Below are positions 2,954 to 17,513 of a stretch of 32,592 nucleotides of DNA, piece after piece (the first letter of the stretch is position 1; every line of letters begins with the position of its first letter). The stretch is from an uncultured archaeon (GTDB lineage: Archaea > Asgardarchaeota > Lokiarchaeia > Sigyniarchaeales > SOKP01). The stretch covers positions 17,904-50,495 of the forward strand of contig CAYUTF010000017.1 in the NCBI GenBank assembly GCA_964447495.1, written 5' to 3'. The notes under the pieces are model-generated. The model was not told the DNA's origin, made no database searches, and saw only the letters and a program-made list of their open reading frames with translations. A program made the translations under genes and the position numbers.

Positions 2954-3958
2954 CTATTTTTTTTTTAATCTATTTTCTTCGATGAATTTTTTATACCAAT
3001 CTATGGTTTTAGTTAATCCTTCTCTTAAAGGAGTAATTTTATAGCCCAGTTCTTTTATAGCTTTTTCTGATGAATATGACCAATTATAGTTGATCATTTT
3101 AATAGTCGGTCGGTTTATATAAGGCACTTTTTTCGTGAATTTTGTCTTAAGTTCACATAACCAACCATATAAAAGAGCCAAGCTCATTGGAAAATGTCGT
3201 ATTTTTTTATCACTTCCTGATATATCAGCAATTGAATTAAGCCAATCATTAAAGAGCATATTCACCCCTCCAAGGATGAATTCTTCTCCCTTTAAATCAT
3301 TTTTTTCTATTATACTTGTCAAACCATTGGCTATATCATTAACGTAAACAAAGGAACCAACATTATCTCCTTTACCAGGACATCCCATAAAGGATTCGCT
3401 AGTTATATCTAGTATAGTCTGCCCAAATATATTAAAATCTCTGGGACCATAAGCTATTCCAGGATAGAACATTACTGCATTAAGTCCTTTTTCAATATAG
3501 TCCTTTATCAATTTTTTTGCTTTAAATTTTGTCTTAGCATAATCAAGGAATAATCCATCCTCACTTTCAAAAGTCTCATCTACTGGTTCTTCAGGAGTTG
3601 CACCTAACGCAATAAAAGAACTAACATATATTAATCTAATATCATTTTTCATTGCTACTTTAGCGACATTCTCTGTACCCTTTATGTTTATATCTTCAAA
3701 TACTGATTCATCTTGAGCCCACATGCGTGTAAATGCAGCTAGATGATATATAATATCAACATCATCTACTACTTTATAGAAACTTTCTATATCTCGAACA
3801 TCGCCATAAATATACTCTATATTTTTAAAATTCTGAAAAGGGGAGATATCACTCGATTCACGTACTAAAAGTTTAAGAGAATGACCTAGTTCATAGAGTT
3901 TTTCAACTAATGGAACACCAATAAATCCCGTTCCCCCAGTAATTAAAATATTTACCAT
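2954..3958 (-). CDS. Extended SDR, NAD-dependent epimerase/dehydratase (3-beta-HSD/HpnA/dihydroflavonol reductase-like)
   Basis: TGGTGFIG, HLAA, VSS, YAKTK (YxxxK), YGP, ELGY. Confidence 0.9.
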   Translation of the reverse strand: MVNILITGGTGFIGVPLVEKLYELGHSLKLLVRESSDISPFQNFKNIEYIYGDVRDIESFYKVVDDVDIIYHLAAFTRMWAQDESVFEDINIKGTENVAKVAMKNDIRLIYVSSFIALGATPEEPVDETFESEDGLFLDYAKTKFKAKKLIKDYIEKGLNAVMFYPGIAYGPRDFNIFGQTILDITSESFMGCPGKGDNVGSFVYVNDIANGLTSIIEKNDLKGEEFILGGVNMLFNDWLNSIADISGSDKKIRHFPMSLALLYGWLCELKTKFTKKVPYINRPTIKMINYNWSYSSEKAIKELGYKITPLREGLTKTIDWYKKFIEENRLKKK

Positions 3959-3998
3959 AGTATAAAGATAAAAAGTTCAATAAATTAAAGAAGAAATT

Positions 3999-4033
3999 TA
4001 ATCATACTTTTAAATTATAATCATACTTTTAAA
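3999..4033. repeat. 16-bp perfect direct repeat TAATCATACTTTTAAA x2 (19-bp period) in a divergent intergenic region
   Basis: Copies at 3999-4014 and 4018-4033. Confidence 0.8.
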
Positions 4034-4113
4034 AATTGTAATAGTTAATACTTGGAATCATAGGAAAGAGAAATTTTATATATACAAAATAGTAAGTTTT
4101 AATTTAAAGAAAG

Positions 4114-4656
4114 ATGTCTGATTATCTCAAATTTGTTTCACAATTGAGTCTACCATTTTTAGAAACGCCTTGGGAGCTCATACCAAATATATTTAATCTT
4201 TTGGCAGAGAAGTTCAATCTAATTCATAATTCCTCCCAAAAACTAATCGACTTAGGCGCAGGAAATGGTCGAGTAGTTATATATTCTGCATTAAATTATG
4301 GAATTAAATCCATTGGAATTGAAATTAATCATAACTTAATGGAGGAAGCAAAAGAAATAATAAAAACATTGAAACAAGAAAAAAGTTATAGAAAGGAACT
4401 ATTTAGATTAATAGAACTTAGGAATGAAGATTTATTTCAGCAAAATTTAAAGGATTATGACTTTATATATATTTATTCCTTGCCATCTATGCAGAAGTCT
4501 TTGAATCATGTATTTAAAACAGCAAAAAACGGAGCTATATTCATCTCATTCAAATACGAGCTTAACGGTTTCGATTCTTATTTACAGAAAGAATATAGTT
4601 TAGAAATTGATCAAAAAAATAAAGTTTGGACAGCATATTATTACAAAAAATTCTGA
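4114..4656 (+). CDS. Class I SAM-dependent methyltransferase, aKMT/FAM173/DOT1-like protein lysine methyltransferase
   Basis: PFLETP, IDLGAGNGRVV, GIEIN, DLF, YIYSL, ISFKY. Confidence 0.8.
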   Translation: MSDYLKFVSQLSLPFLETPWELIPNIFNLLAEKFNLIHNSSQKLIDLGAGNGRVVIYSALNYGIKSIGIEINHNLMEEAKEIIKTLKQEKSYRKELFRLIELRNEDLFQQNLKDYDFIYIYSLPSMQKSLNHVFKTAKNGAIFISFKYELNGFDSYLQKEYSLEIDQKNKVWTAYYYKKF

Positions 4657-4719
4657 TTAAAATTATTTTTGATTTCGCAAAATCATACAAACCTTCTAAG
4701 TGAAATTCTTTAGTTTAAA

Positions 4720-5214
4720 TCATTTCGGGGATATTTTTTCTCTCAACCAAAGCAAATGTTGATATTGCCACTCTCTTTCTTTAGCTACAGCAGCATAGGC
4801 ATCAGAGGAGTTGCTGGCTCTATGTATAGCCTGTAAGCCATAAATTGCAGCACCAATAGAATGAGTTTTAACGTGAGCTGTTGCAACTGCCTGACCTGCG
4901 GCACGTGCTGCAGAGCGAGCGGCATTATCCTCGCCTATTTCACGAGCAGCAGTATGTGCATCAAGTGAAGCTTTGCGTATAACTGCCATCTTAAATGAAC
5001 CTGTATTTATCCATGTTTGGAGCGTTTCGAAAGCATTTTTGGGACGATGATCTTTAGGACATTTTTTCTCAAAGTATGGCAGAACACGTTTGGTACAATC
5101 AAATGCCCAGACAGCTAATGTCTTTTTATCAGTTTTATTTACAAGCTCTACAAGTCTCTCGTCTTTTCTGTAATCTATAAGTGAAAATTTGGATTTTTCT
5201 TTTTCAATTTTCAT
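4720..5214 (-). CDS. Imm5-like putative immunity protein
   Basis: WAFDCTKRVL...DHRP...ASLDAHTAARE...AARAAGQAVATAHV.THSIGAAIY signature. Confidence 0.8.
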   Translation of the reverse strand: MKIEKEKSKFSLIDYRKDERLVELVNKTDKKTLAVWAFDCTKRVLPYFEKKCPKDHRPKNAFETLQTWINTGSFKMAVIRKASLDAHTAAREIGEDNAARSAARAAGQAVATAHVKTHSIGAAIYGLQAIHRASNSSDAYAAVAKEREWQYQHLLWLREKISPK

Positions 5215-5366
5215 ATAATTAAATGAATAGTGTAAATAATTATAAAATCTTTGATTATGAGAGTAAAAATGAAGTTCATTCTCGATTAAAGCAGGAAAGA
5301 ATAAATTGCTTTTTTGTCATCATGTTTGAATGAATCATTCAAAACTTCGTGAAATCATCGTTATAG

Positions 5367-5528
5367 CTTAAAGATACTAAAATAAATTTGGAAAATCCAA
5401 TTGTCATTAATGCTAGTATTAGGGCAAAATTAGATGTTTTTAAGGATAAATACCCAACAACAACAATTTGGTCATGGTTTGTACAGCGTACAAGGAAAAT
5501 TACTGAAAATGATTTTAAAATAATTTAA
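5367..5528 (+). pseudogene. C-terminal remnant of an EVE/PUA-like domain protein
   Basis: Start-less frame LKDTKINLENPIVINASIRAKLDVFKDKYPTTTIWSWFVQRTRKITENDFKII*, preceded by an in-frame TAG at 5364. Confidence 0.45.
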
Positions 5529-5647
5529 AAAAAAAATATTGAAATTTATGACTAATGAAAATCTAATTGAGATTGATATTAAAGTAATTAAAAAAAAAAG
5601 ACAAATTTTTAAATTTAGCTGTAATAATGAAAAATGTAAAAATAAAA

Positions 5648-5665
5648 AATGAATAATTATTCATT
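5648..5665. promoter_or_regulatory. Perfect 18-bp palindrome AATGAATAATTATTCATT, candidate operator of the respiratory operon
   Basis: Self-complementary; ends 8 bp before the ATG at 5674. Confidence 0.55.
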
Positions 5666-5673
5666 AAATAGAA

Positions 5674-5985
5674 ATGATCATAATTGAACTTCTAGTATCA
5701 CTACTTATCGTATACCTTGTTGCATTTATAATTTATTTATTAGGAAGCAAAAAAAGAAGATATAGTGACACCTATCATTGTGGTGAAAGATTAATAGAAC
5801 ATAAGGTGAAATATCAAGTCCCATGGATATATTATGCCAGTCTTTTTATCGCATTTGATGCCACAGTAGTTCTTGTTGCAATTACCTCTCTTTCACTAAA
5901 TATTATAACTTTAATTTTCTTGATTTTGATCATGCTCTCTTTATTTTTTATTCCCAAAGAAAAAGAGAGTGTGAATGATGATTAA
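5674..5985 (+). CDS. nuoA: NuoA-like (complex I subunit 3) membrane subunit
   Basis: 3 TM; YHCGE (YECG equivalent); FIAFD. Confidence 0.85.
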   Translation: MIIIELLVSLLIVYLVAFIIYLLGSKKRRYSDTYHCGERLIEHKVKYQVPWIYYASLFIAFDATVVLVAITSLSLNIITLIFLILIMLSLFFIPKEKESVNDD

Positions 5986-6949
5986 AATCGCAATGATATT
6001 GATATGGGTTCTTCTATCGTTTTTATTCTCCCTTTTTTATGAGTGGTTTGATAGGAAGGTGTATGCACGTTTTCAAAATAGAATAGGCCCTCAAATGACC
6101 GGTTTCAAAGGAATAATGCAACCATTGGCGGACTTCATTAAATTATTAAACAAGGAGAGTATATTTCCAAAAGTAAGTAATACTTTTTTGATAACATTCT
6201 CTGCAATATCATCAGTCGCACTAATGTTTTTTATATTACTTTTTATTCCTCTTTATGATTTTAATGCACCACTTTCGTTTAGTGGTGATTTAATTTTATT
6301 ATTCGGGATCGGTGTGCTTATAGATCTTTTAATTATAATAACTGGTTATTCTGTTGCTTGCCCTTATTCAAATGAAGGTGCAGCAAGAAAGGCAGAGATG
6401 ATAATTTCCTTCGAAATTCCTTTCGGAATATCAATAGCAACTATTATAGCCATATCCAAATCTATTACTATAAAAGAAAGTTTGTTATTTCAATCGTCGG
6501 GTATTCCCCTTATATTATTCATGCCTTTAAGTTTTATTGCATATATATTTAGTAGCATAGCAAAAATAGAAAAAGTCCCATTTGATTCTCCAAGTGCAGA
6601 GTCAGAAATCGTAGCAGGATGGTCAACAGAAATCAGTGGGAGAACATTAGCCTTATTCAGACTTTCTTCGGATCTTGATATGTATTTTGTGGCATCTTTT
6701 GCAGCCATCCTTTTCCTAGGTGGTCCAACATTCCCTTATTTTAACTATCCTGAGTTATTATTTCTTAATCAGACTTTAAATTTTATAATATTCTTTCTCA
6801 AGACATCATTAATTGTCTTTATAATAACAATGATAAGGAGCCTTACTGCAAGATATCGCATTGATCAAGTAATTAACTATTTCTGGAAAGTTATTTTTCC
6901 ATTGGCAATGTTGAATTTAATTATAATTATTATATTTGGTTTGGGGTGA
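5975..6949 (+). CDS. nuoH: NuoH/MbxM-like membrane anchor subunit
   Basis: RKVYARFQNRIGP, GIMQPLADFIKLLNKE, PFD..AESEIVAGW.TEISG, RYRIDQ. Confidence 0.95.
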   Translation: MMIKIAMILIWVLLSFLFSLFYEWFDRKVYARFQNRIGPQMTGFKGIMQPLADFIKLLNKESIFPKVSNTFLITFSAISSVALMFFILLFIPLYDFNAPLSFSGDLILLFGIGVLIDLLIIITGYSVACPYSNEGAARKAEMIISFEIPFGISIATIIAISKSITIKESLLFQSSGIPLILFMPLSFIAYIFSSIAKIEKVPFDSPSAESEIVAGWSTEISGRTLALFRLSSDLDMYFVASFAAILFLGGPTFPYFNYPELLFLNQTLNFIIFFLKTSLIVFIITMIRSLTARYRIDQVINYFWKVIFPLAMLNLIIIIIFGLG

Positions 6950-6955
6950 TTCAAT

Positions 6956-7210
6956 ATGAATGTTCTTATTATTCCTCTGTCGTTATTTATTTTAATAATA
7001 CTAACCACATTAACAATCTATTTTGTAGAAAAATTAATGCACGTTGCTATTTTTTTTACAGTATTCAATATCTTAATAGGAATATTTTATATTTTTTTGG
7101 GCTATACTCTCTTGGGCATATTTCAGATAACATTATACTCTGTTTCGATGGCAACTCTATTTTTTTATATAATATGTTTAATAGGAGGGGAAGATAATAA
7201 AGAAGAGTAA
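6956..7210 (+). CDS. NuoJ N-terminal half / MbhD-like small membrane subunit
   Basis: 3 TM; LGY.LLGIFQITLYSVSM resembles NuoJ TM3; position between nuoH and nuoK. Confidence 0.7.
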   Translation: MNVLIIPLSLFILIILTTLTIYFVEKLMHVAIFFTVFNILIGIFYIFLGYTLLGIFQITLYSVSMATLFFYIICLIGGEDNKEE

Positions 7211-7214
7211 ATTA

Positions 7215-7469
7215 TTGTCATGTGTGTTATTGTTCTTAATGGTAACAATTACTGTTTCTTATGCCATTGAATTTGAGAATATTCAAAGCAATTATGTAGA
7301 AAACACAGGTGATATTTTAACAGGTGAGGATGGTAAAGTATTTGATACATTAATAGGAAAATTTATCTGGGAATATAGGGGATTCGAGATGATCATAATA
7401 GCTTTTATTTTACTCAGCGTATATGCTGGTATTTCAACACAAATTAGGAGATCCAATGATAGGAAGTGA
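7215..7469 (+). CDS. NuoJ C-terminal half / MbhE (MnhB-like) small membrane subunit
   Basis: IGKFIWEYRGFE motif followed by a TM helix; TTG start uncertain. Confidence 0.65.
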   Translation: MSCVLLFLMVTITVSYAIEFENIQSNYVENTGDILTGEDGKVFDTLIGKFIWEYRGFEMIIIAFILLSVYAGISTQIRRSNDRK

Positions 7470-7792
7470 TAAAAATGATTGATATAATAATACTTATATT
7501 TTTTTTAATAATGACAGAATTTTTCATAAGCTTGGTAATAGCTGCCACTAGTAAAAATGTAATCAAAATAATAATAGGCGTGGAGATTTTAATAATTACT
7601 GCAAATGCATTTCTAGTCTTTTTTTCTGTATATTTTGCAGGCGGTAGTTTAGATCCATTTGTTGTAACAATCGTTATGATCTCGACAATAATTGCAGCAA
7701 TTGTTGCTGCGTTTGTTCTTATTATTGTTTATATGATGCAAGAAAAATTCAATACACTTAATGCTGAAAAAATTAGTGAGCTTAGGTGGTAA
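7466..7792 (+). CDS. nuoK: NuoK/MbhG/MnhC-like subunit
   Basis: KNVIKIIIGVEILI, DP, 3 TM. Confidence 0.8.
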   Translation: MIKMIDIIILIFFLIMTEFFISLVIAATSKNVIKIIIGVEILIITANAFLVFFSVYFAGGSLDPFVVTIVMISTIIAAIVAAFVLIIVYMMQEKFNTLNAEKISELRW

Positions 7793-7801
7793 AAGATATA
7801 T

Positions 7802-9880
7802 ATGGAAGCTTGGGCGATATGGTTAATTCCATTGATTGGTTCCTTTATAGCATATGGGATTGCGAAGAGGAGGAAGTCATACGCCGGATATTTTTCGTTA
7901 GGTATATCAATTATGTGTTTTTTTTTATCCGTAAAAATTTTATATGATATGATCACATCTCCACTATCTCTCCCCTACCAAGACACATTCAATTTATTTT
8001 ACGGTTTTGGAGTAGCTTATTTAGAATTTGGTATATTAATTGATGAGTTTAGTGTACTTATAATAATTATTATCGCATTTATTTCAATTTTGATTTTTAT
8101 TTATAGCTTGGGTTACATGCGTGAAGAAATCGATTTAGGGCGATATTGGTTTTGGATGAATTTCTCATTAGGTTCTATGTTTCTTTTGGTAATATCGAAT
8201 AATTTTATTGAAATGCTATTAGCATTTCTAATGGTCAGTCTTTGTAATTGGGGACTAATCTCATTCTGGTATAAAAAAACAAACCCAAGTCTGGTTCCTG
8301 GTTTTGATACTGATGGAAAATATAATAGACACTGTGGAACTAAGGCACTAATAACTATATTTATCGCTGGGTGCTTTATGGAGGTTGCAATTATTTTACT
8401 CGAATTCGCTACTATGAATTCTTTTGGTCATCCTACTTCAAATTTTTTGACTCTTAGTAAAGATAATTGTTGGGTAACTAAACTTTTAAATGCTGGAATC
8501 CTTCCTCTATTCTCAATATTGATAATTTCAAGTTCTCTCGCAATAAGTGCTCAGTTCCCATTTCATGATTGGCTTCCTGAGTCGACAGCTGGGCCTATAA
8601 CTGCTTCCACATTAATGTTTTCCGCGACTACGATAAATGCAGGTGTTTATATACTTGGTAGGCTCTTTTTAATAAATTATGACTTATATTCTTTATCAGT
8701 TGCTTCTGAGCTCTCATTAATATTTGAAATTGCGATTGTATGCGGACTAATAACTATTATATTAACTGGTGCTTATGGAATAGTAGCGAGGGATCTAAAG
8801 AGAATTCTTGCTTTTTCAACCTCAAATCAGTTGGGATACATATTCTTTATATTCGGTGTTGCAGGTCTTTATCTTAATTATTCAGCATTTGTTGCAGGTG
8901 TTCTTTATATCCTCGCACATAGCATATTTAATTCGCTTCTTTTTTTAAGTTCTGGCTTAATAATACACTCAACAGGTATCAAAAATGTCTATGAAATGGG
9001 CTCTCTTAGAAAATATATGAAAAAGACTTATATCTTAATGATTATAGGAGCATTTTCGATTGTTGGAATCCCTCCATTGGTGGGATATCTCAGCATTCAA
9101 CTTATAGTTAACGAAATATTTGTTCTCCCTGCATGGATTACTATTCTATTTATCATGACATTTCTCCTAACTAACCTATATATATTTAGAATGATTGGGC
9201 TTATATTTTTTGGGACCGAGAGTGAGAAAATTAAAAAAATCGAGACAATGGAAAAAGTACACAAGCCTACCTCCATAATGACAGTTCCTCTAATTATTTT
9301 AGCCACTTTATCTTTTGGATTAATCTTTTTTTACCCTACTATTATTAATTTTATATCTAGAAGTATTCCACTGGATATCTCATTTGATAAACTATTGTAT
9401 TTCCTTTCTAATACATATTTGTCTATTGGTAGTTATATAATTGTTACATTACTTATAGTGGGCTTATTAATAACCTATCCTTTCTATTTCACAAGAAAAA
9501 TCTCTACTCGTGCTATAACATCAAAATATCTCATAAAAGATATACATAAATTGTTAAAGAAGCGAGTGATCTTTAATCCTCTTTATTATTCATTCTACCA
9601 AGGGATTTTTAAATTAGGAAATGCCACAAAAAACTTCCATCAATCAATTGATAAGCTTTATTACGGTGTTGGCCAAAGGATTACTAAATTAGGAAATGCC
9701 ACAAAAAACTTCCATCAATCACTTGATAAATTTTATTGCAGGCTTGCGTATAGTGTTAGAAAGAGTGGTGATCATATAAGAAAATTCCACACTGGAAAGA
9801 TAAATTTAAATTTGATTTATTATGTTATCAGTATATTTTTATCCCTTATTATTATATATGCGTTGGTGAAGCTGAGTTAA
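7802..9880 (+). CDS. nuoL: NuoL/MrpA-like antiporter-type subunit with degenerate proton-channel residues
   Basis: IYSLGYM, SAQFPFHDWLP, GP, DLKRILAFST.NQLGY, C-terminal lateral helix + HTG + TM16. Confidence 0.92.
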   Translation: MEAWAIWLIPLIGSFIAYGIAKRRKSYAGYFSLGISIMCFFLSVKILYDMITSPLSLPYQDTFNLFYGFGVAYLEFGILIDEFSVLIIIIIAFISILIFIYSLGYMREEIDLGRYWFWMNFSLGSMFLLVISNNFIEMLLAFLMVSLCNWGLISFWYKKTNPSLVPGFDTDGKYNRHCGTKALITIFIAGCFMEVAIILLEFATMNSFGHPTSNFLTLSKDNCWVTKLLNAGILPLFSILIISSSLAISAQFPFHDWLPESTAGPITASTLMFSATTINAGVYILGRLFLINYDLYSLSVASELSLIFEIAIVCGLITIILTGAYGIVARDLKRILAFSTSNQLGYIFFIFGVAGLYLNYSAFVAGVLYILAHSIFNSLLFLSSGLIIHSTGIKNVYEMGSLRKYMKKTYILMIIGAFSIVGIPPLVGYLSIQLIVNEIFVLPAWITILFIMTFLLTNLYIFRMIGLIFFGTESEKIKKIETMEKVHKPTSIMTVPLIILATLSFGLIFFYPTIINFISRSIPLDISFDKLLYFLSNTYLSIGSYIIVTLLIVGLLITYPFYFTRKISTRAITSKYLIKDIHKLLKKRVIFNPLYYSFYQGIFKLGNATKNFHQSIDKLYYGVGQRITKLGNATKNFHQSLDKFYCRLAYSVRKSGDHIRKFHTGKINLNLIYYVISIFLSLIIIYALVKLS
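9581..9739 (+). repeat. 75-bp (25-aa) in-frame tandem duplication in the NuoL lateral helix
   Basis: 37 identical bp at 9610-9646 and 9685-9721; protein KLGNATKNFHQS(I/L)DK twice. Confidence 0.95.
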
Positions 9881-9881
9881 T

Positions 9882-11390
9882 ATGTCAGAATTAGTATTTT
9901 TAACAAGTAAGTATCTATTTCCCATAATTATACCCCTAATTACAGCTATTATAGTTTTAATAACCGGAAAGTGTCGGGAAAATAAAGTAATATTAGGAGC
10001 TATTAGCACAGGTGGTTCATCTCTAGTTGTGTTCTTTTCCTTATGCAATCTTATCGAGTCATTGACTACTCCAATTCTTCTCGATTTTCATACCGGAGGA
10101 ACAATTATTGCAATTGATGGTCTTTCTGCATTAATATCACTTTTTTCCTCCATTCTAGGGACGATAATATCTCTTTACAGTATTGGTTACTTAGAGGAAA
10201 AACGAATAACAGAATATTATTTTCTGCTTTTGTTAATGATATCGGCACTAAATGGTGTAGCATATTCGGGTGATCTCATAACCCTTTTTGTGTTTACTGA
10301 ATTTCTCGCAATTACCGCTTATATTCTAGTTGCTTTTTACAGAAATAAGGAATCTATTGAAGCGTCATTTAAGTATATCATAATGGGCTCAATTGGTGCT
10401 GCTTTAGTGTTGTTTGCACTATCATTTGTCTACATCATCGCAGGCACTACTAATTTGACAGAATTAAATAGTGCATTAAATGATCAACCCCTTACCATTT
10501 ATTATTTCCTTTTTATCATGTTCGTACTTGGATTTGGTGTGAAGGCAGCAATCTTTCCACTCCACACATGGTTGCCGGACGCACATTCAGCAGCTCCATC
10601 TGGAGTAAGTGCAATGCTTTCGGGAATTGTTATTGAAATAGAAATGTTCGCATTAATAAAAGTATTAGTCTCTATCTTTTATAACGAGATTTTATTATCT
10701 TTTGACAATATAATGGTAATCTTTTTGCTTATAATATCTGCGTTAACTATAACAATTCCAAATTTAACTGCACTAGTACAAGAAGATATAAAAAGAATGC
10801 TAGCCTATTCCAGTGTCTATAATATAGGTTTGATGATAGTAGGTATAGCGATAGGTACTCCTTTCGCACTAGCAGCAACAATATTTCATATTCTAAATCA
10901 TGGAATATCAAAAGCGACCATGTTTATTTGTGCTGGATCATTTATAAAAGAGGGGAAAACAAGGGAAATAAAGAAGTTGATGGGGATCGGAACTAAAATG
11001 AAAGTTACAGGGATGATATTTGCCCTAAGCGCATTTTACTTAGCAGCATTTCCACCATTAGCTATGTTTTGGAGTAAGCTATTTCTGATAGAAGCTGCAA
11101 TTGGATCATCACAACAAGTTGGTTGGATGGGGATTATGATCGCAATTATAATCGTAGTGAACACTGTGATTTCTATAGGCTATTATTATGGCGTTTTAGT
11201 AAAAAACATAGTCATTGTTCCCGAAAATCAGATTTCAGAAGAAGTTCATAATGCCTTAGAAAAAAACAATACGATATTAGCGTCCGAGGTAACACTTTTC
11301 ATTATAATGCTACTAGTATCCATTATGTCGTTATTCATTTGGGGATTTATTTGTAAATGTGTAGATTCTTTCTTATCTGTTTATAGTTGA
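9882..11390 (+). CDS. NuoN/NuoM/MbhH (MrpD)-like antiporter subunit
   Basis: VFTEF (TM5 Glu), GVKAAIFPLHTWLPDAH, KRMLAYSS, NHGISKA, FWSKL. Confidence 0.92.
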   Translation: MSELVFLTSKYLFPIIIPLITAIIVLITGKCRENKVILGAISTGGSSLVVFFSLCNLIESLTTPILLDFHTGGTIIAIDGLSALISLFSSILGTIISLYSIGYLEEKRITEYYFLLLLMISALNGVAYSGDLITLFVFTEFLAITAYILVAFYRNKESIEASFKYIIMGSIGAALVLFALSFVYIIAGTTNLTELNSALNDQPLTIYYFLFIMFVLGFGVKAAIFPLHTWLPDAHSAAPSGVSAMLSGIVIEIEMFALIKVLVSIFYNEILLSFDNIMVIFLLIISALTITIPNLTALVQEDIKRMLAYSSVYNIGLMIVGIAIGTPFALAATIFHILNHGISKATMFICAGSFIKEGKTREIKKLMGIGTKMKVTGMIFALSAFYLAAFPPLAMFWSKLFLIEAAIGSSQQVGWMGIMIAIIIVVNTVISIGYYYGVLVKNIVIVPENQISEEVHNALEKNNTILASEVTLFIIMLLVSIMSLFIWGFICKCVDSFLSVYS

Positions 11391-11404
11391 GGTGTCATTT
11401 TTAT

Positions 11405-11899
11405 ATGTCTGAAGGAATTAGTTTTTTAAAACAACTTAAAGAGGATTCATTAGAATATATAGAAGATAAAAATATCTTTTTTTTTAAAATTAGGGAAAAG
11501 GATTATCTCAATATCGCAAAATACCTCAAAGACCATGGGTTCCGAAGATTATTAACTTTAAGTGCGGTGGACTGGATAAAAGATGATTCATTTGAGATAT
11601 TTTTTATCTTACATATTATGAACAAGAATATCTATATTAAAGTTTCCACACGCATTCCACGTAGAGAGAATGTTAAAATTGAAAGCTTATCCAAGTTATG
11701 GCCGAATGCTGCGTTGCACGAAAGAGAGGTATGGGAAATGTTCGGTATTATCTTTGAGGGGAATAAAATGTTAAAACCATTATTTTTAGAAAATTGGATA
11801 GGTCCACCTCCCTTTAGAAAGGATTTTGATTGGAGGAAATATGTCAAAAGGAATTTCAACATAATGATGCCAGAGTTTAAAAGAGATGATGGAAAATGA
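11405..11899 (+). CDS. nuoC: NuoC/MbxK-like subunit
   Basis: LSAVDW, WPNAALHEREVWEMFGIIFEG, PFRKDF; ATG at 11405 preferred over TTG at 11387. Confidence 0.93.
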   Translation: MSEGISFLKQLKEDSLEYIEDKNIFFFKIREKDYLNIAKYLKDHGFRRLLTLSAVDWIKDDSFEIFFILHIMNKNIYIKVSTRIPRRENVKIESLSKLWPNAALHEREVWEMFGIIFEGNKMLKPLFLENWIGPPPFRKDFDWRKYVKRNFNIMMPEFKRDDGK

Positions 11900-13896
11900 T
11901 TAAGAGAGCATTTAATATATTAAAAACAGGGGTAAAACTATTTATAAAAAAACCAATTACATTCAAATTTCCTCCAGAGTCACCAATCTCAAAGAAATTT
12001 AGGGGACGGCATATCTTTCATCCAGAAAAATGTATATCTTGTGGGATATGTTTTAGAATCTGTCCTAATAAAGCGATTAATATGGTAGAACGACAAAAAG
12101 ATGGAAGAATTGTCTATTATCCAAGTATTAATTATTCAAAGTGTTGTTTTTGCGGACTGTGTCTCGATTTATGTCCTACAAAAGCTCTTGATACAACAAA
12201 TTTTTCTATAATAATTTCGATAAATAAAAAAGATTTAATTTTCACACCCGAAAAGTTGGCTCAACAACCAGTGTTAGAACATCCTGAAAAACCAAAGAGG
12301 AAAAATATTGTAAGTTGGGCGCGTTCAAGGAGCTTATGGATAACAAACTATTTTGTTGGATGCTGTTTCATAGAAGCAATACCATGGATTGGTAGTGGAT
12401 TTGATATGGAAAGATTTGGGATGATTGCAAAAGGAAGCCCGTTACATTCGGATGTACTTCTTATAGGGGGCTATGTGACTTATAAAACATTAAAGAGGAT
12501 AATTAGTATATATAAAGCGATGCCTCAACCTAAATTTGTATTGGTTCTTGGAAACTGTCCTATGACAGGAGGAACATATTGGGATAGTTACAATACCATA
12601 AAAAAGATTGATGATTATATCCCTGTGGATATATGGATCGCTGGATGTCCGACTAGACCAGAGTCAATAGGTTTTGCTGCCTACCATGCAATACTAGCTA
12701 TCGAAAGCGGATATATGCCGAGGGAAATAAAAGTTAGAACAAAGAAGAAGATTCAATATAGAAATACAGATGATTTAAAAGTAGAACCAATCATAAAGAA
12801 AATTAGAACCGATGAGAGGATACTTTCATTTGGCCCTCAACATCCAGCATCAGGTAATTTTTCGCTAAGATTAAATATTAAGGGAGAAACAATATACAAT
12901 GCTGTAAGTATTGTGGGGTATCTCCACAGAGGACTTGAAAAACTCTTTGAATATAGAACGTGGTATCAAAACATAATACTTATATCACGTATTTGTGTGT
13001 TAGATGGAGCATCATATGAAATAGGATATGTTAATGCCGTAGAGAAATTATTAGAAATTGAAATTCCAGATAAAGCAAAGTATCTACGAGTAATTCAGGC
13101 AGAATTATCAAGGATTCAAAGTCATTTAATTAATTTAGGGCTCGTTGCTTATAGTAGTGGATTTGATACAGTAGCGAGGCTTGTATGGGGGGATAGAGAA
13201 AAAATACTTTTCCTCCTTGAGGCGTTATGTGGAGGTCGTATTTATCAAATATATAATATTCCAGGAGGGGTGAGGTGTGATGTCTCAGATGAATTTAAAA
13301 AAAATGCTCCGAATATAATATCATATATAAAAAATAGACTTAAAATTCTTGATGACCTCTTTATGGAAAATTTAGTTTTCAGAAAAAGAGCTATTAATTT
13401 AGGGAAAATATCTCGTGATATTGCAATAGAATCTGATATTACTGGTCCCAACATTAGGGCATCAGGTGTAAAATTTGATGTGAGAAAAGCAACTCCATAT
13501 GCAGCCTACGACAAACTTCATTTCGATGTGCCAATATTTAACGATGGAGATGTATACCATAGAGTTTTAGTAAGACGACTAGAAATCGAAAAAAGCTTAA
13601 ATTTAATAGAAGAAAGTATGAATAAGTTACCTGGTGGTCCTATTAAAGTGGAATTTAGCCCCATGGATCAAATTCAAAAAGGAGAAGCAATATCTTTTGT
13701 CGAAAGTGCAAGAGGAGAGCTATGTTTTCATGTGGTAAGCGATGGGGGACAATATCCTTATAGAATTAAAGTAAGGGGGCCCACATTTGATTCCATTCTT
13801 TTTTTGTTGCCAAAATTACTGAAAGGGTATTTTCTAGCTGATTTACCATTAATTTACTGGAGTCTGGATAATTGTCCCGCAGATCATGATAGATGA
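11896..13896 (+). CDS. Fused NuoI-NuoB-NuoD (MbxN-MbxJ-MbxL-like) catalytic module, MBS-type two-Cys active site
   Basis: Two CxxCxxCxxxCP motifs; GCCFIE...GNC...GCP.RPE; FGPQHP, GYLHRGLEK, RICVLD, ESARGE, DNCPADHDR. Confidence 0.93.
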   Translation: MIKRAFNILKTGVKLFIKKPITFKFPPESPISKKFRGRHIFHPEKCISCGICFRICPNKAINMVERQKDGRIVYYPSINYSKCCFCGLCLDLCPTKALDTTNFSIIISINKKDLIFTPEKLAQQPVLEHPEKPKRKNIVSWARSRSLWITNYFVGCCFIEAIPWIGSGFDMERFGMIAKGSPLHSDVLLIGGYVTYKTLKRIISIYKAMPQPKFVLVLGNCPMTGGTYWDSYNTIKKIDDYIPVDIWIAGCPTRPESIGFAAYHAILAIESGYMPREIKVRTKKKIQYRNTDDLKVEPIIKKIRTDERILSFGPQHPASGNFSLRLNIKGETIYNAVSIVGYLHRGLEKLFEYRTWYQNIILISRICVLDGASYEIGYVNAVEKLLEIEIPDKAKYLRVIQAELSRIQSHLINLGLVAYSSGFDTVARLVWGDREKILFLLEALCGGRIYQIYNIPGGVRCDVSDEFKKNAPNIISYIKNRLKILDDLFMENLVFRKRAINLGKISRDIAIESDITGPNIRASGVKFDVRKATPYAAYDKLHFDVPIFNDGDVYHRVLVRRLEIEKSLNLIEESMNKLPGGPIKVEFSPMDQIQKGEAISFVESARGELCFHVVSDGGQYPYRIKVRGPTFDSILFLLPKLLKGYFLADLPLIYWSLDNCPADHDR

Positions 13897-14243
13897 GCAA
13901 TGTAAAATATACTGTTACTTATAATTTTAAATTGAGATTCTTAGAAACTAAAATAATAATTGATAAAATATCCCAATTTAAATTTTTAGTTAATCTATTA
14001 ATATTTTACCTTCAGAGTTTTACAGTTTTTAAGAAATAAAAAGATAATGGAGTAATTGGTTAAAAATTAAAAAATGTTGTAAACGAATTCCTCTTTATGA
14101 ACTGAATAGAAAAAAAATTGATAATTGGCTTCATTAAATTACAATTTAACAAACTTACTAATCATATACTTGATATGAAAATTTAAAGAATAATCAGTGT
14201 TTCACGATCTTACTTCTTAATTTTCCTGATATTGAATCTAGAT

Positions 14244-15458: not shown

Positions 15459-17513
15459 ATGGTAAAAATACAAGATATTCAGATTAACATCGATTCGCAA
15501 AAACTAGCCCAAGGATATTACGTAAAATATATTCTGGAAACAAATGGCAACACAGAAGCAGAATCTTTAGGCGAAAAATTTATGCAACAATATGAAAAGT
15601 TACTTAAAAAGCACGAAGAGGAAGACATTTACGATCTCCATCGATATTATCGACTAATAACCGAATTTAAACCTGCTCTGTTGATGATTTTGAAACCAGG
15701 TAAGGAATTTGATATGATTTGCGATGTCGCTGTAAAGAATTTCAATGTAGCTTTAGATAGGATTAGAAAGCAAATTAAGCAAAATAAACTCACTCCAACA
15801 ATGAAGGGTCCTATTATGCCAGGGAGTAGCAAAACCATGAATTTAAAGTATCTATGTACAGTTTGTAAGCAGACTTTCGATATTCCAACTGAAACTAAAG
15901 AAAAATTGTTGAACAGCGATGAAAAACAAAAACTTCCAAAACACTGCGAAAAAGAAATGATTCTTAAAATAGTAAGGACTCAAGAAGACGTATCTATTGA
16001 TAAAACTAAAGAAATTGAGCCCGAACTCAAAATCTTTTCTGCTGAAGTGTTAATGAGTCATATAGATTCTGAAGAAGCAAAAACAGAATACTTAAAACTA
16101 TTAAGTGTCGGAATAGATGTTGGCTCCTCCACATGTCATCTTGTGTTCTCGGCCCTTACTCTGAAAAGGGAGTTGAGTTTTTTTAACATGTCAAATCGAT
16201 TTATTCTTAATGATCGAGAGATAATATATGAAGGGAATATCATAATCACTCCTTTAATTGATCGTAATACAATCGATATTGAGGCAGTTATAAAGTTTTT
16301 TAAAGAAGAATATGAGAAAGCAGGTATTACTCCTGACATGGTAGATACAGGTGCGGTAATTGTTACTGGTGAAACTGCTAAAAAGCAAAACGCGTTAGAG
16401 ATTGTAAGTCAACTTTCTTCCGAGTCTGGAAAATTTGTAAGCGCTTCAGCTGGTCCTAATTTTGAATCAGTTCTTGGAGCAATGGGAAGTGGCATCGTTG
16501 AATTGTCTAAACAGAAACAAAACACTATATTAAACGTGGATATCGGAGGAGGTACAAGTAATCTCGCAATTTCATCAAAAGGAGAGATACTTACTACCTC
16601 CTGTATCAACATTGGAGGTCGACTACTTGGAATAGACGATAATTTTAAGATCTGGAGAATTGATGCTCCAACTGAAATTGTTATGAATCAGTTGAACATG
16701 AATTATGAGATTGGTGATAAAATAACTAAAGATGATATTAGGAGGATAGCCCATGAATATGCAAAGTCTCTATTTGAGGTGATGAGAGGCCCAGCAACTA
16801 GTAACATTGCTATAGAATTAATGATGACTAATGATTTGGATTTCTCTATCCCAATCGATGAAGTATCTTTTTCGGGGGGAGTTGCAGAAATGATTTATGG
16901 TAAAACCTCTGAGACATATGAGGATATTGGTATATACATAGCCGAAGAAATCAAAAATCTAATAAAAGAATTTAATGTACCATTAATTGAACCTGAAAAT
17001 AAAATAAGGGCAACAGTGATCGGAGCTGGTGCATTTTCTCTCTCGGTATCTGGTTCTACTTCCTATTACGATGAAAATATTGATTTACCCATCTTAAATG
17101 TACCAGTAGTACCTGCTAATATAAATCCAAGAGAGCAAAATCTAAAAAGTAAAGTGAAACAAGCGCTAAAGAACTTTAATTTAACAGAAGGTGAAGACGT
17201 TTTTGCCTTATATTTCAAAGATTTAATAGCTCAAAATGATTTAGAGATGCTTGCTGAAGAAATCGAAAAAGCTCTTCCAAATTCAGTGGCAAATAAGAAA
17301 TTAATAATGATTATTCTTAGATATGATGGAGCAAAAATGTTTGGAATAACTATTAGAGATAACACTTCAATAAAACAAAACCTTTTTTGTTTAGATGAAT
17401 TAGAGTTAGAAGCTGGAGATTGGATTGACATAGGTGCTCCTCTCAAAGATGGAGTAGCATTCCCGGTCACGATTAAAAGCTTAGTATTTAATAAAGTTAG
17501 GAAAGATTTGTGA
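15459..17513 (+). CDS. eutA: EutA-family reactivating factor (actin-like ATPase) with ~210-aa N-terminal extension including a CxxC...HC Zn-binding motif
   Basis: LLSVGIDVGSST, TGAVIVTGETAKKQNA, AGPNFES, NVDIGGGTSN, FSGGVA, IRATVIGAG, GDWIDIG.P, PVTIKSLVF. Confidence 0.88.
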   Translation: MVKIQDIQINIDSQKLAQGYYVKYILETNGNTEAESLGEKFMQQYEKLLKKHEEEDIYDLHRYYRLITEFKPALLMILKPGKEFDMICDVAVKNFNVALDRIRKQIKQNKLTPTMKGPIMPGSSKTMNLKYLCTVCKQTFDIPTETKEKLLNSDEKQKLPKHCEKEMILKIVRTQEDVSIDKTKEIEPELKIFSAEVLMSHIDSEEAKTEYLKLLSVGIDVGSSTCHLVFSALTLKRELSFFNMSNRFILNDREIIYEGNIIITPLIDRNTIDIEAVIKFFKEEYEKAGITPDMVDTGAVIVTGETAKKQNALEIVSQLSSESGKFVSASAGPNFESVLGAMGSGIVELSKQKQNTILNVDIGGGTSNLAISSKGEILTTSCINIGGRLLGIDDNFKIWRIDAPTEIVMNQLNMNYEIGDKITKDDIRRIAHEYAKSLFEVMRGPATSNIAIELMMTNDLDFSIPIDEVSFSGGVAEMIYGKTSETYEDIGIYIAEEIKNLIKEFNVPLIEPENKIRATVIGAGAFSLSVSGSTSYYDENIDLPILNVPVVPANINPREQNLKSKVKQALKNFNLTEGEDVFALYFKDLIAQNDLEMLAEEIEKALPNSVANKKLIMIILRYDGAKMFGITIRDNTSIKQNLFCLDELELEAGDWIDIGAPLKDGVAFPVTIKSLVFNKVRKDL

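Follow-up and report, generated by a model that had tools for sequence, protein, structure and literature searches.

A putative two-module, hydrogenase-related oxidoreductase with a NuoI-NuoB-NuoD fusion protein on a transferred island of an Asgard archaeon

Operon layout

The window analysed in this study, a stretch of 32,592 nucleotides, is part of contig CAYUTF010000017.1 (positions 17,904 to 50,495, forward strand; assembly GCA_964447495.1) of an uncultured archaeon assigned to the Asgardarchaeota (Lokiarchaeia, Sigyniarchaeales). At positions 5674–13896 (+) it carries one operon of ten open reading frames (ORFs) with tight or overlapping junctions, which probably encodes a membrane-bound oxidoreductase related to group 4 hydrogenases and complex I. 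Based on Pfam and NCBIfam, the gene order is nuoA, nuoH, nuoJ (split), nuoK, nuoL, a gene for an MrpD/MbhH-like antiporter, nuoC and a gene for a NuoI-NuoB-NuoD fusion protein. The operon and its non-coding margins form an island shared with a second genome (G252). The features are as follows, in window coordinates.

5345–5673 (no strand): upstream non-coding portion of the shared island; 5345 is the left edge of the 97%-identical stretch
5674–5985 (+): nuoA, 103 amino acids (aa); Pfam PF00507, 30.4 bits against a cut-off of 23.3
5975–6949 (+): nuoH, 324 aa, membrane anchor of the peripheral arm, complex-I/NDH-1 type; Pfam PF00146, 253.9 bits
6956–7210 (+): N-terminal half of nuoJ, 84 aa; Pfam PF00499, 29 bits, below the cut-off of 33.2, profile positions 3–63 of 146
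7215–7469 (+): ORF of 84 aa with two hydrophobic segments, no family match in Pfam or NCBIfam; counterpart in G252 at 153 bits
7466–7792 (+): nuoK, 108 aa; Pfam PF00420, 42.5 bits
7802–9880 (+): nuoL, 692 aa, with C-terminal lateral helix; Pfam PF00361 and PF00662, NCBIfam NuoL 298 bits over residues 3–635
9882–11390 (+): second antiporter-like subunit, 502 aa, MrpD/MbhH/MbsH type in NuoM/N position; Pfam PF00361, 204 bits
11387–11899 (+): nuoC, 170 aa; Pfam PF00329, 107 bits
11896–12270 (+): NuoI domain of the fusion, residues 1–125, two 4-Cys motifs for two [4Fe-4S] clusters; Pfam Fer4 families, NCBIfam NuoI
12271–12792 (+): NuoB/MbsJ-like domain of the fusion, residues 126–299; closest chain in the Protein Data Bank (PDB) MbsJ, 147.5 bits
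12793–13896 (+): NuoD/MbsL-like domain of the fusion, residues 300–666; closest PDB chain MbsL (6u8y_L), 303 bits over the full length
13897–14196 (no strand): downstream non-coding portion of the shared island; 14196 is the right edge according to BLASTN

Cluster ligands and active-site residues of the fusion protein

None of the eight cluster cysteines of the I domain (C46, C49, C52, C56, C83, C86, C89 and C93) varies across 54 aligned sequences of the family, and this domain is the likely entry point for ferredoxin electrons. In the B domain, C156, C221 and C251 are invariant in the same 54 sequences, while C157 is variable. The G-C-C-F motif of the window (C156-C157, codons 12361–12366) corresponds to the adjacent Cys pair of complex I cluster N2. 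Among the 71 family sequences carrying this motif, it reads CC[FY] in 55 and CGF in 16. An alignment of B subunits gives the pattern C-T-G-C-G in clade B of the tree described below, which is that of C25/C28 in MbsJ of MBS, the membrane-bound sulfane sulfur reductase. Unfused proteins of clade A have a single Cys (C-G-F), and Asgard four-Cys hydrogenases have a G-C-N-G-C loop that is three residues longer. The loop of the window is of MBS length, with Phe in the C25 position and an additional Cys after the equivalent of C28.

A preliminary description of this DNA had read two motifs in the D domain, and both are present: RICVLD, referred to as L1 (C367, codon 12994–12996), and DNCPADHDR, referred to as L2, which stands directly before the stop codon (C660, codon 13873–13875). 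Each of the two Cys is followed three residues on by an Asp, where the second [NiFe] Cys would stand. They align with C85 and C385 of MbsL, the two of four [NiFe] Cys that are kept in MBS. The motifs that the preliminary description had given for MbsL (RICVPE, DNCPPDIDR) appear in the HMMER alignment to PDB 6u8y chain L, and those given for MbsJ (GYVT.KTLKRII, GG.YWD.YN) in the alignment to chain J, with GYVTPKTLKRII and GGIYWDAYN. The conservation it expected for both Cys was found as well, at a level far above chance: the L1 Cys occurs in 73 of 74 fused-family cluster representatives, and of the 68 whose C-terminus is intact, 67 have the L2 Cys. The lone exception in the fused family has lost both, as has a Cys-less subclade of clade B. 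Since the two are either both kept or both lost, this suggests that Cys of the C367/C660 type act as a pair.

Active-site columns were scored over 251 D-subunit rows, classified by their Ni-Fe ligand columns as described below. The proton-path Glu column contains Glu in 42 of 43 four-Cys rows; the window has Gly there, as do 79 of 89 two-Cys rows. The column of Tyr87 in Nqo4 contains Tyr in 59 of 98 Cys-less rows; here the window shares Val with, again, 79 of 89 two-Cys rows. In the column of Nqo4 His38, His is present in 58 of 98 Cys-less rows, and the window has Ser (or a gap). The fusion protein ends at the L2 motif, without the C-terminal extension for maturation by an endopeptidase that Asgard four-Cys D subunits possess. 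With the Glu, the Tyr/His and the extension all missing, the site in the D domain is predicted to be neither a [NiFe] site nor a canonical quinone site.

In the AlphaFold2 model the fusion packs as a single body, with a mean predicted local distance difference test score (pLDDT) of 83.7 and a predicted template modelling score (pTM) of 0.90. Foldseek comparison of the D domain matched all chains of the 49-kDa/NuoD type. The MBS structure, which the preliminary description had named for comparison, supplied the top target-normalised TM-score (0.91) and the top identity (40%) with 6u8y_L. By E-value, however, this chain ranks 14th; the comparison fails to tell MBS from complex I, and the structure match is thus non-discriminating.

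Phylogenetic position of the B and D domains

When compared with all chains of the PDB, the D domain reaches 303 bits with MbsL, 247 with Thermus thermophilus Nqo4, 194 with MbhL and 170 with HycE. The corresponding values for the B domain are 147.5 bits for MbsJ, 123 for NdhK, 95 for MbhJ and 93 for Nqo6. MbsL and MbsJ are hence the top-scoring chains, in line with the MBS-like character ascribed to both domains before.

For the D-domain trees, 251 homologues were used. Of these, 149 represent clusters formed at 50% identity, 80 come from named loci in species genomes, and the rest belong to the fused family or to neighbours of it; the MBS references are Thermococcus loci. According to the four Ni-Fe ligand columns, 43 rows are four-Cys, 89 are C-[DE]-C-[DE] (two-Cys), 98 are Cys-less and 21 are others. 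FastTree was run on all 251 rows and IQ-TREE on 80 chosen rows (LG+C20+F+G4), with support from the Shimodaira-Hasegawa-like approximate likelihood ratio test (SH-aLRT) given in brackets below.

A two-Cys core clade of 44 of the 80 IQ-TREE rows (98) splits into clade A (92) and clade B (88), and FastTree agrees. Clade B has 'CPP[DE]' motifs and contains Thermococcus MbsL together with many bacterial mbx-like sequences. Clade A has 'CPAD' motifs; within it the 10 rows of the fused family (100) form the sister group (92) of unfused proteins 366–385 aa long, whose public names are mostly Bathyarchaeota. Cys-less rows with motifs of the NuoD/FpoD type form a clade of their own (97) from which the window is excluded. 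The four-Cys hydrogenases lie on the opposite side of the tree (98), including the Asgard complex-I-like D subunits of loci L118, L119 and L121. The NuoD-domain phylogeny proposed in the preliminary description therefore places the protein in the two-Cys clade, with neither the NuoD/FpoD type nor the four-Cys hydrogenases. Membership in MBS itself did not hold, as the D domain falls in clade A, the sister of the MBS-containing clade B.

One further Asgard locus, L120 (G041:C7, 1–16000), has an entire Nuo-like operon, arranged A-B-C-D-H-I-?-K-N-N-L. The D subunit encoded there keeps one Cys in L1 (RQCLPDV) and has Trp at the place of the L2 Cys (LDYWPPDADR); it is part of a small distinct clade that lies outside the two-Cys core.

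Membrane arm

NuoH scores 137–120 bits with NdhA/ND1/Nqo8 in the PDB, compared to 98 with MbhM and 73 with MbsM, and NuoL scores 156 bits with NdhF (residues 3–608) and 66 with MbsH'. For the 502-aa antiporter-like subunit the values are 177 (MbhH), 171 (MbsH), 154 (MrpD) and 127 bits (NdhB). Relative to the complex I set, NuoA, NuoH, the split NuoJ, NuoK and NuoL are of complex-I type, with only one further antiporter, of the MrpD/MbhH type. The stand-alone NuoA, the NuoL with lateral helix and the complex-I-like arm of the preliminary description are borne out by Pfam and NCBIfam, by these scores and by the NuoH tree. The same two databases, applied to the operon ORFs, detected no Mrp-specific or NuoEFG genes and only two PF00361 genes, as it had stated.

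The closest homologues of the window's NuoH, NuoL, NuoK and NuoA at the phylum level are those of L118 (260, 337, 46 and 31 bits). L118 (G048:C248, 1–19644) comprises two operons on opposite strands, nuoA-B-C-D-H-I and (J)-K-L-N. RICGICS in the D subunit, which also has a C-terminal extension, marks the locus as a complex-I-like four-Cys hydrogenase as described for Asgard archaea. With L029, the sole clade-A locus with a full membrane arm, the window's NuoH, NuoL, NuoK and NuoA score 156, 120, 15 and 18 bits. The scores of NuoB, NuoC, NuoD and NuoI go the opposite way, with L029 above L118. In a NuoH tree of 26 rows, the window belongs to a clade (98) with NuoH of Asgard four-Cys type, Asgard Nuo type and true complex I; branching inside this clade lacks resolution, and NuoH of clades A and B lies outside it. 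Since the D domain and NuoH group with different relatives, the encoded complex appears to be a chimera of a clade-A redox module on an arm of the complex-I/Asgard-hydrogenase type.

The N-terminal half of NuoJ matches short NuoJ models of NCBIfam and is conserved in G252. The 84-aa ORF that follows it is probably the C-terminal half of a split NuoJ, judging from its position and its two hydrophobic segments. In BLASTP comparisons with the NuoJ-position ORF of L118, this ORF gave no alignment and the N-terminal half aligned only at E = 0.096. The C-terminus of NuoL consists of about 95 amphipathic residues, i.e. the predicted lateral helix, followed by the last transmembrane helix. A direct repeat of 25 residues lies inside the lateral helix (window 9500–9800, residues ~600–650). 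One copy is absent from P0305, a member of the NuoL 90%-identity cluster, so the length of the helix varies within the population. A tandem duplication was considered as the reason for a NuoL of 692 rather than 655 aa and was rejected, as the called N-terminus accounts for the difference.

Distribution and gene contexts of the fusion family

A word-indexed search yielded 74 clusters of the fusion or its fragments, mostly from Asgard archaea. The public names include Promethearchaeota, Heimdallarchaeota, Odinarchaeota, Njordarchaeia, Freyarchaeota and Asgard group, with a few cases of Bathyarchaeota, Hecatellaceae or Anaerolineae. Full-length matches to the fusion (53–96% identity) were found in 22 of 301 phylum-sampled genomes from about ten families.

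Gene contexts were compared for the 15 fused-family loci whose flanks could be used. In every one of them, nuoC is the gene directly upstream of the fusion. A membrane arm adjoins this pair in two of them, the window and G252. In three others (G041, G058 and G076) it is adjoined by genes for an FdhA-like molybdopterin oxidoreductase and an FrhB-like protein, with FmdE; this context is confirmed by Pfam for G041 and part of G076, the remainder by homology. Judged by these contexts, nuoC and the fusion gene behave as a portable module. Of the synteny that the preliminary description had proposed to survey, the nuoC-fusion pairing is constant and the adjacent membrane arm is not. That description had overlooked that I, B and D are fused, that the pair mostly occurs with no membrane genes beside it and that it is linked to Fdh genes.

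In L122 (G041:C6, 910000–929999), L131 (G058:C74) and L126 (G076:C21), the pair stands in one gene string with FdhA-like (675–686 aa), FrhB/FdhB-like (~415 aa) and FmdE genes, which suggests a soluble form of the module linked to formate dehydrogenase. About 1 kb downstream of the fusion gene of L025, from a metagenome-assembled genome (MAG) of the Hecatellales, a 429-aa pyridine nucleotide-disulfide oxidoreductase with dimerisation domain is encoded (3917–5206, +). It has a CoA-disulfide/NSR-like architecture and neighbours an aldehyde:ferredoxin oxidoreductase and a ferredoxin, which may be coincidence. In bacterial mbx-like loci of clade B (L055, L044, L066 and L034; ~11,000–13,000), the gene in NuoI position encodes 590–625 aa instead of ~130–230. 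By its length, this fits the GltD-like fusion of PMC4758237.

Island borders and genome context

In a BLASTN comparison, G252:C16 (1129–9975, on a contig of 10.1 kb from another genus of the same family) matched window positions 14196–5345 with 97.2% identity over 8853 columns, while the flanks remained unmatched. All frames of the operon are intact and 95–97% conserved in this second genome. A search of 27 other genomes from the window's genus gave no match (E ≤ 1e-20) to the 666-aa fusion. For the right flank, 27 of 30 same-genus genomes contain homologues with 67–77% DNA identity, indicating that the contig is native to the genus and the operon was added. On the strength of these comparisons, we regard the operon as a transferred, recently acquired island of 8.85 kb.

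Contigs of other runs bridge both borders, the right one in X1 and X2 (zero differences) and the left one in X1 and X3. One X2 contig ends exactly at 5344, at the left border. In run X3 the left flank has many differences and none are listed for the operon part, which fits a conserved island in diverging backgrounds. A repeat search at the borders found no attachment-site-like repeats, and none of the ten flanking ORFs scanned is an integrase.

The flanking ORFs are unrelated to the operon (aldehyde dehydrogenase, epimerase, methyltransferase, Imm5-like, GNAT, EutA-like, hydrolase), and no sulfur gene or partner gene was found in the operon or among the ten ORFs scanned around it. The putative Imm5-like immunity gene (4720–5214, −; Pfam PF21805, 149 bits) directly adjoins the left border. 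The EutA-like protein (15459–17513, +; 684 aa) matches PF06277 with 448 bits over residues 213–678; its N-terminal extension of about 210 residues has no match, and homologues occur in same-genus genomes. The names on relatives agree with the Asgard origin suggested before; Candidatus Thorarchaeota is the name attached to a protein that shares at least 90% identity with the flanking aldehyde dehydrogenase.

The genome is 98.4% complete with 3.75% contamination. The operon is its only PF00346 locus and the site of its only PF00361 genes, no match to Rnf-Nqr was found in the genome, and an A/V-ATPase subunit I is present. With this island as the only Nuo/Mrp-type pump found, and no Rnf found, the acceptor would decide between respiration and fermentation only. 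The genome further contains 37 matches to the CCG domain, two other [NiFe] large subunits (~435–440 aa) and HypD. Nickel maturation is hence available, which does not discriminate between the readings discussed below. Runs holding operon DNA are labelled salt marsh, marine sediment, vent and seep (habitat labels only), and no RNA run is among those listed.

Proposed function and alternatives

Taken together, the operon probably encodes a membrane-bound, ion-translocating, hydrogenase-related oxidoreductase of the energy-converting hydrogenase-related (Ehr) or Mbx/MBS-like kind, composed of two modules of different descent. The complex-I-type arm would consist of NuoA, NuoH, the split NuoJ, NuoK, NuoL with lateral helix and one MrpD/MbhH-like antiporter. 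The peripheral arm would consist of NuoC and the NuoI-NuoB-NuoD fusion, the B and D domains of which fall in the two-Cys clade with MbsJ and MbsL of Pyrococcus furiosus. Electrons from reduced ferredoxin would enter at the I domain with its two [4Fe-4S] clusters and move on to the proximal cluster of the B domain. An acceptor would then be reduced in the chamber between the B domain, the D domain and NuoH. This reduction could power ion export via NuoH, NuoJ, NuoK and the two antiporter-like subunits, and so supply the A/V-type ATP synthase. The ferredoxin donor, the ion pumping and the direction of operation are each read from gene content and homology. Sulfane sulfur or polysulfide is, by homology, the best single candidate for the acceptor, although a tentative one; protons and quinone are unlikely acceptors in view of the active-site residues.

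Several observations weigh against this interpretation. The tandem Cys pair in the B domain is complex-I-like by its motif. With 375.9 bits against a cut-off of 360, the protein is accepted by the NuoD equivalog model of NCBIfam, so that routine annotation names it a quinone-reducing NuoD. The C85A/C385A variant of MbsL retains polysulfide-reducing activity in vitro, and catalysis in MBS is assigned to the MbsJ proximal cluster, which is ligated by three Cys only (PMC7684303). As the Cys pair of MbsL is dispensable in vitro, Cys conservation tells little about the acceptor. In 10 of the 15 fused-family loci, neither a membrane arm nor Fdh genes adjoin the pair, so that the module may also function without a pump. 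The quinone-pathway search, in which MqnA/D had no match in the genome and MenA peaked at 16.8 bits against a cut-off of 102, covered these two families only, in a MAG, and other lipophilic carriers are possible.

These results also bear on what the preliminary description had made of the operon, namely a ferredoxin:sulfur oxidoreductase between MBS and complex I. The MBS-like B and D domains and the complex-I-like arm agree with it, and sulfur reduction stays at the level of a plausible suggestion. The two Cys as a sulfur site are not supported, given the active MbsL variant, the three-Cys proximal cluster of MBS and the complex-I-like Cys-Cys of the window. Sulfur respiration cannot be generalised to the lineage, because the operon is a transferred island not found in the 27 other genomes of the genus.

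A functional MBS, i.e. an energy-conserving ferredoxin:sulfane-sulfur (polysulfide) oxidoreductase in which the Cys pair or the proximal cluster reduces S-S, is possible but well short of an even chance. It would explain MbsL and MbsJ as top PDB matches, the same two Cys kept with acidic residues replacing the others, and a B-domain loop of MBS length, three residues below that of four-Cys hydrogenases. The unfused relatives with a single Cys at the first cluster motif would fit a three-Cys cluster, and the habitat labels of the runs would suit it as well. However, the D domain is sister to the MBS clade instead of part of it, the window has Cys-Cys where MBS has one free Fe, and the Cys pair of MbsL is dispensable in vitro. 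Moreover, the Mrp module and MBS gene order present in 13 of 13 clade-B loci are absent, and no sulfur gene is linked to the operon. Alternatively, the fusion module may, in the manner proposed for Fpo-like complexes, trade electrons with a partner protein or with an acceptor that is soluble or of the heterodisulfide type, or the complex may run in reverse and use the ion gradient to reduce ferredoxin; the D-domain site would then serve for docking or relay. The portable pair with its Fdh-linked and solitary contexts, the 37 CCG-domain matches and the earlier proposal of FDH-Ehr complexes (PMC6349859) point this way, but no partner gene is located in or beside the operon, and we consider this alternative unlikely though not negligible.

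The remaining explanations have far less in their favour. A reductase of the quinone or phenazine type, an 11-subunit-style complex I/Fpo minus one antiporter, is what the public annotation (NADH-quinone oxidoreductase subunit D) implies. The NuoD model score, the tandem Cys and the arm with NuoA and NuoL lateral helix are compatible with it. It is nevertheless improbable, since the equivalents of Tyr87 and His38 are missing, the D domain is outside the NuoD/FpoD clade, MqnA/D and MenA were not found in the genome and 16 of 71 family members lack the second Cys of the pair. Still less probable is an H2-evolving complex-I-like group 4 [NiFe] hydrogenase. H2 evolution is predicted for such Asgard complexes (10.1101/2024.07.04.601786; PMC11291895), the membrane arm resembles that of Asgard four-Cys operons, and HypD and two other [NiFe] large subunits are encoded in the genome. 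On the other hand, only two of four Ni-Fe Cys are present, Gly replaces the proton-path Glu, the C-terminal extension is absent and the D domain stands apart from the Asgard four-Cys D subunits. An artefact, in which the contig is chimeric or wrongly binned or the operon is decaying and not expressed, would account for the operon not being found in 27 of 27 same-genus genomes, for the bin contamination and for the lack of an RNA run among the listed holders. It is scarcely credible in view of nine or ten intact frames conserved at 95–97% in a second genome, right-flank homologues in 27 of 30 same-genus genomes and both junctions bridged by contigs of other runs.

As a more speculative extension of the two-module oxidoreductase, held with low confidence, the nuoC and NuoI-B-D pair could be a portable Asgard catalytic cassette built around a two-Cys/two-carboxylate site. 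It would join different partners (here a complex-I-type pump from the Asgard hydrogenase/Nuo lineage, elsewhere FdhA/FrhB genes) or act alone, and reduce, for example, sulfane sulfur or a disulfide-like acceptor, with neither H2 formation nor quinone reduction. If this is true, transfer of the whole 8.85-kb operon gave a genus without another such complex its only redox-driven ion pump.

Comparison with known systems

Complex-I-like complexes of Asgard archaea that have a lateral helix and fewer antiporters and lack NuoEFG were interpreted as H2-evolving hydrogenases (PMC11291895; 10.1101/2024.07.04.601786). The group 4 hydrogenases of this kind in our data set (G048:C248 L118; G041 L119 and L121) share with the window NuoA, NuoH, NuoK, the NuoL lateral helix, one more antiporter and the lack of NuoEFG, and their NuoH is related (46% identity to the G048 copy). 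In contrast, their D subunit has RICGICS, a full four-Cys site and a C-terminal extension, their B subunit has the long C-x-x-C loop, and their B, C, D and I subunits are encoded by separate genes. For Asgard bioenergetics this matters because recent papers take complex-I-like clusters for H2-evolving hydrogenases, while the fusion, annotated as 'NuoD', is predicted to have neither a hydrogenase nor a quinone site. Metabolic models that count the fusion as complex I or as a hydrogenase need checking.

The eleven-subunit relatives of complex I (NDH-1, Fpo-like and Hfo) resemble the window in lacking NuoEFG, in having ferredoxin as the likely donor and in their complex-I-type membrane arm. They differ in having three antiporters instead of two, and the D domain of the window is neither of the Cys-less quinone/phenazine type nor of the four-Cys Hfo type; the Bathyarchaeia 'Hfo' is a four-Cys Fpo-like hydrogenase (10.1101/2020.12.10.419648).

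Ehr complexes without Ni-Fe ligands are established, with Mbx counted as one type (PMC6349859). The window agrees with the definition given there, being related to group 4 hydrogenases and complex I, lacking Ni-Fe ligands and having antiporter-like subunits. Mbx-like operons with vestigial NuoD Cys are known from Thermotoga and from proteobacteria with a GltD-like subunit, and such Cys also occur in Nuo operons of Nautiliales and Desulfurobacteriales (PMC4758237). The window shares with these systems the descent, the incomplete Ni-Fe ligands and the antiporter-like subunits. In the literature searched, neither the fusion of I, B and D nor its combination with a complex-I-like arm of Asgard type nor its distribution among Asgard archaea was found. 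The architecture is thus novel only in part, as vestigial-Cys hydrogenase-related complexes, including Nuo-type operons, were published before (PMC6349859, PMC4758237). No description of a NuoI-B-D fusion or of an Mbx/MBS-like module in Asgard archaea was found in the literature, in which the supplementary tables of PMC8163825 and of the two Asgard hydrogenase papers, which may list the family, were not covered. Most worth pursuing are the redox module, fused and portable as it is, and the swap of modules.

MBS (formerly Mbx) of Pyrococcus furiosus (PDB 6U8Y; PMC7684303) provides the best-scoring solved structures for the large and small subunits. Like the window, it keeps the same two [NiFe] Cys, each followed by an acidic residue, has a short B-domain loop and lacks both the quinone Tyr/His and the hydrogenase Glu. 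An MbsH/MbhH-like antiporter and ferredoxin-type input via a 2x[4Fe-4S] subunit are common to both as well. However, the D domain of the window belongs to the sister clade, and the gene order K-H-H'-M-J-K-L-N of MBS is absent from the window, as is an Mrp Na+ module (MbsA/B/C and others). It has NuoA, the NuoL lateral helix and a complex-I-type NuoH instead, its I, B and D domains are fused, and its first cluster motif is Cys-Cys, whereas MBS has C-x-x-C there, one Cys lying beyond reach. The organism is sediment-derived and of low G + C content, unlike the hyperthermophilic Thermococcales. With regard to how complex I evolved, the operon appears to be a natural case of an MBS-type redox module on a complex-I-type arm, which suggests that the two modules are interchangeable.

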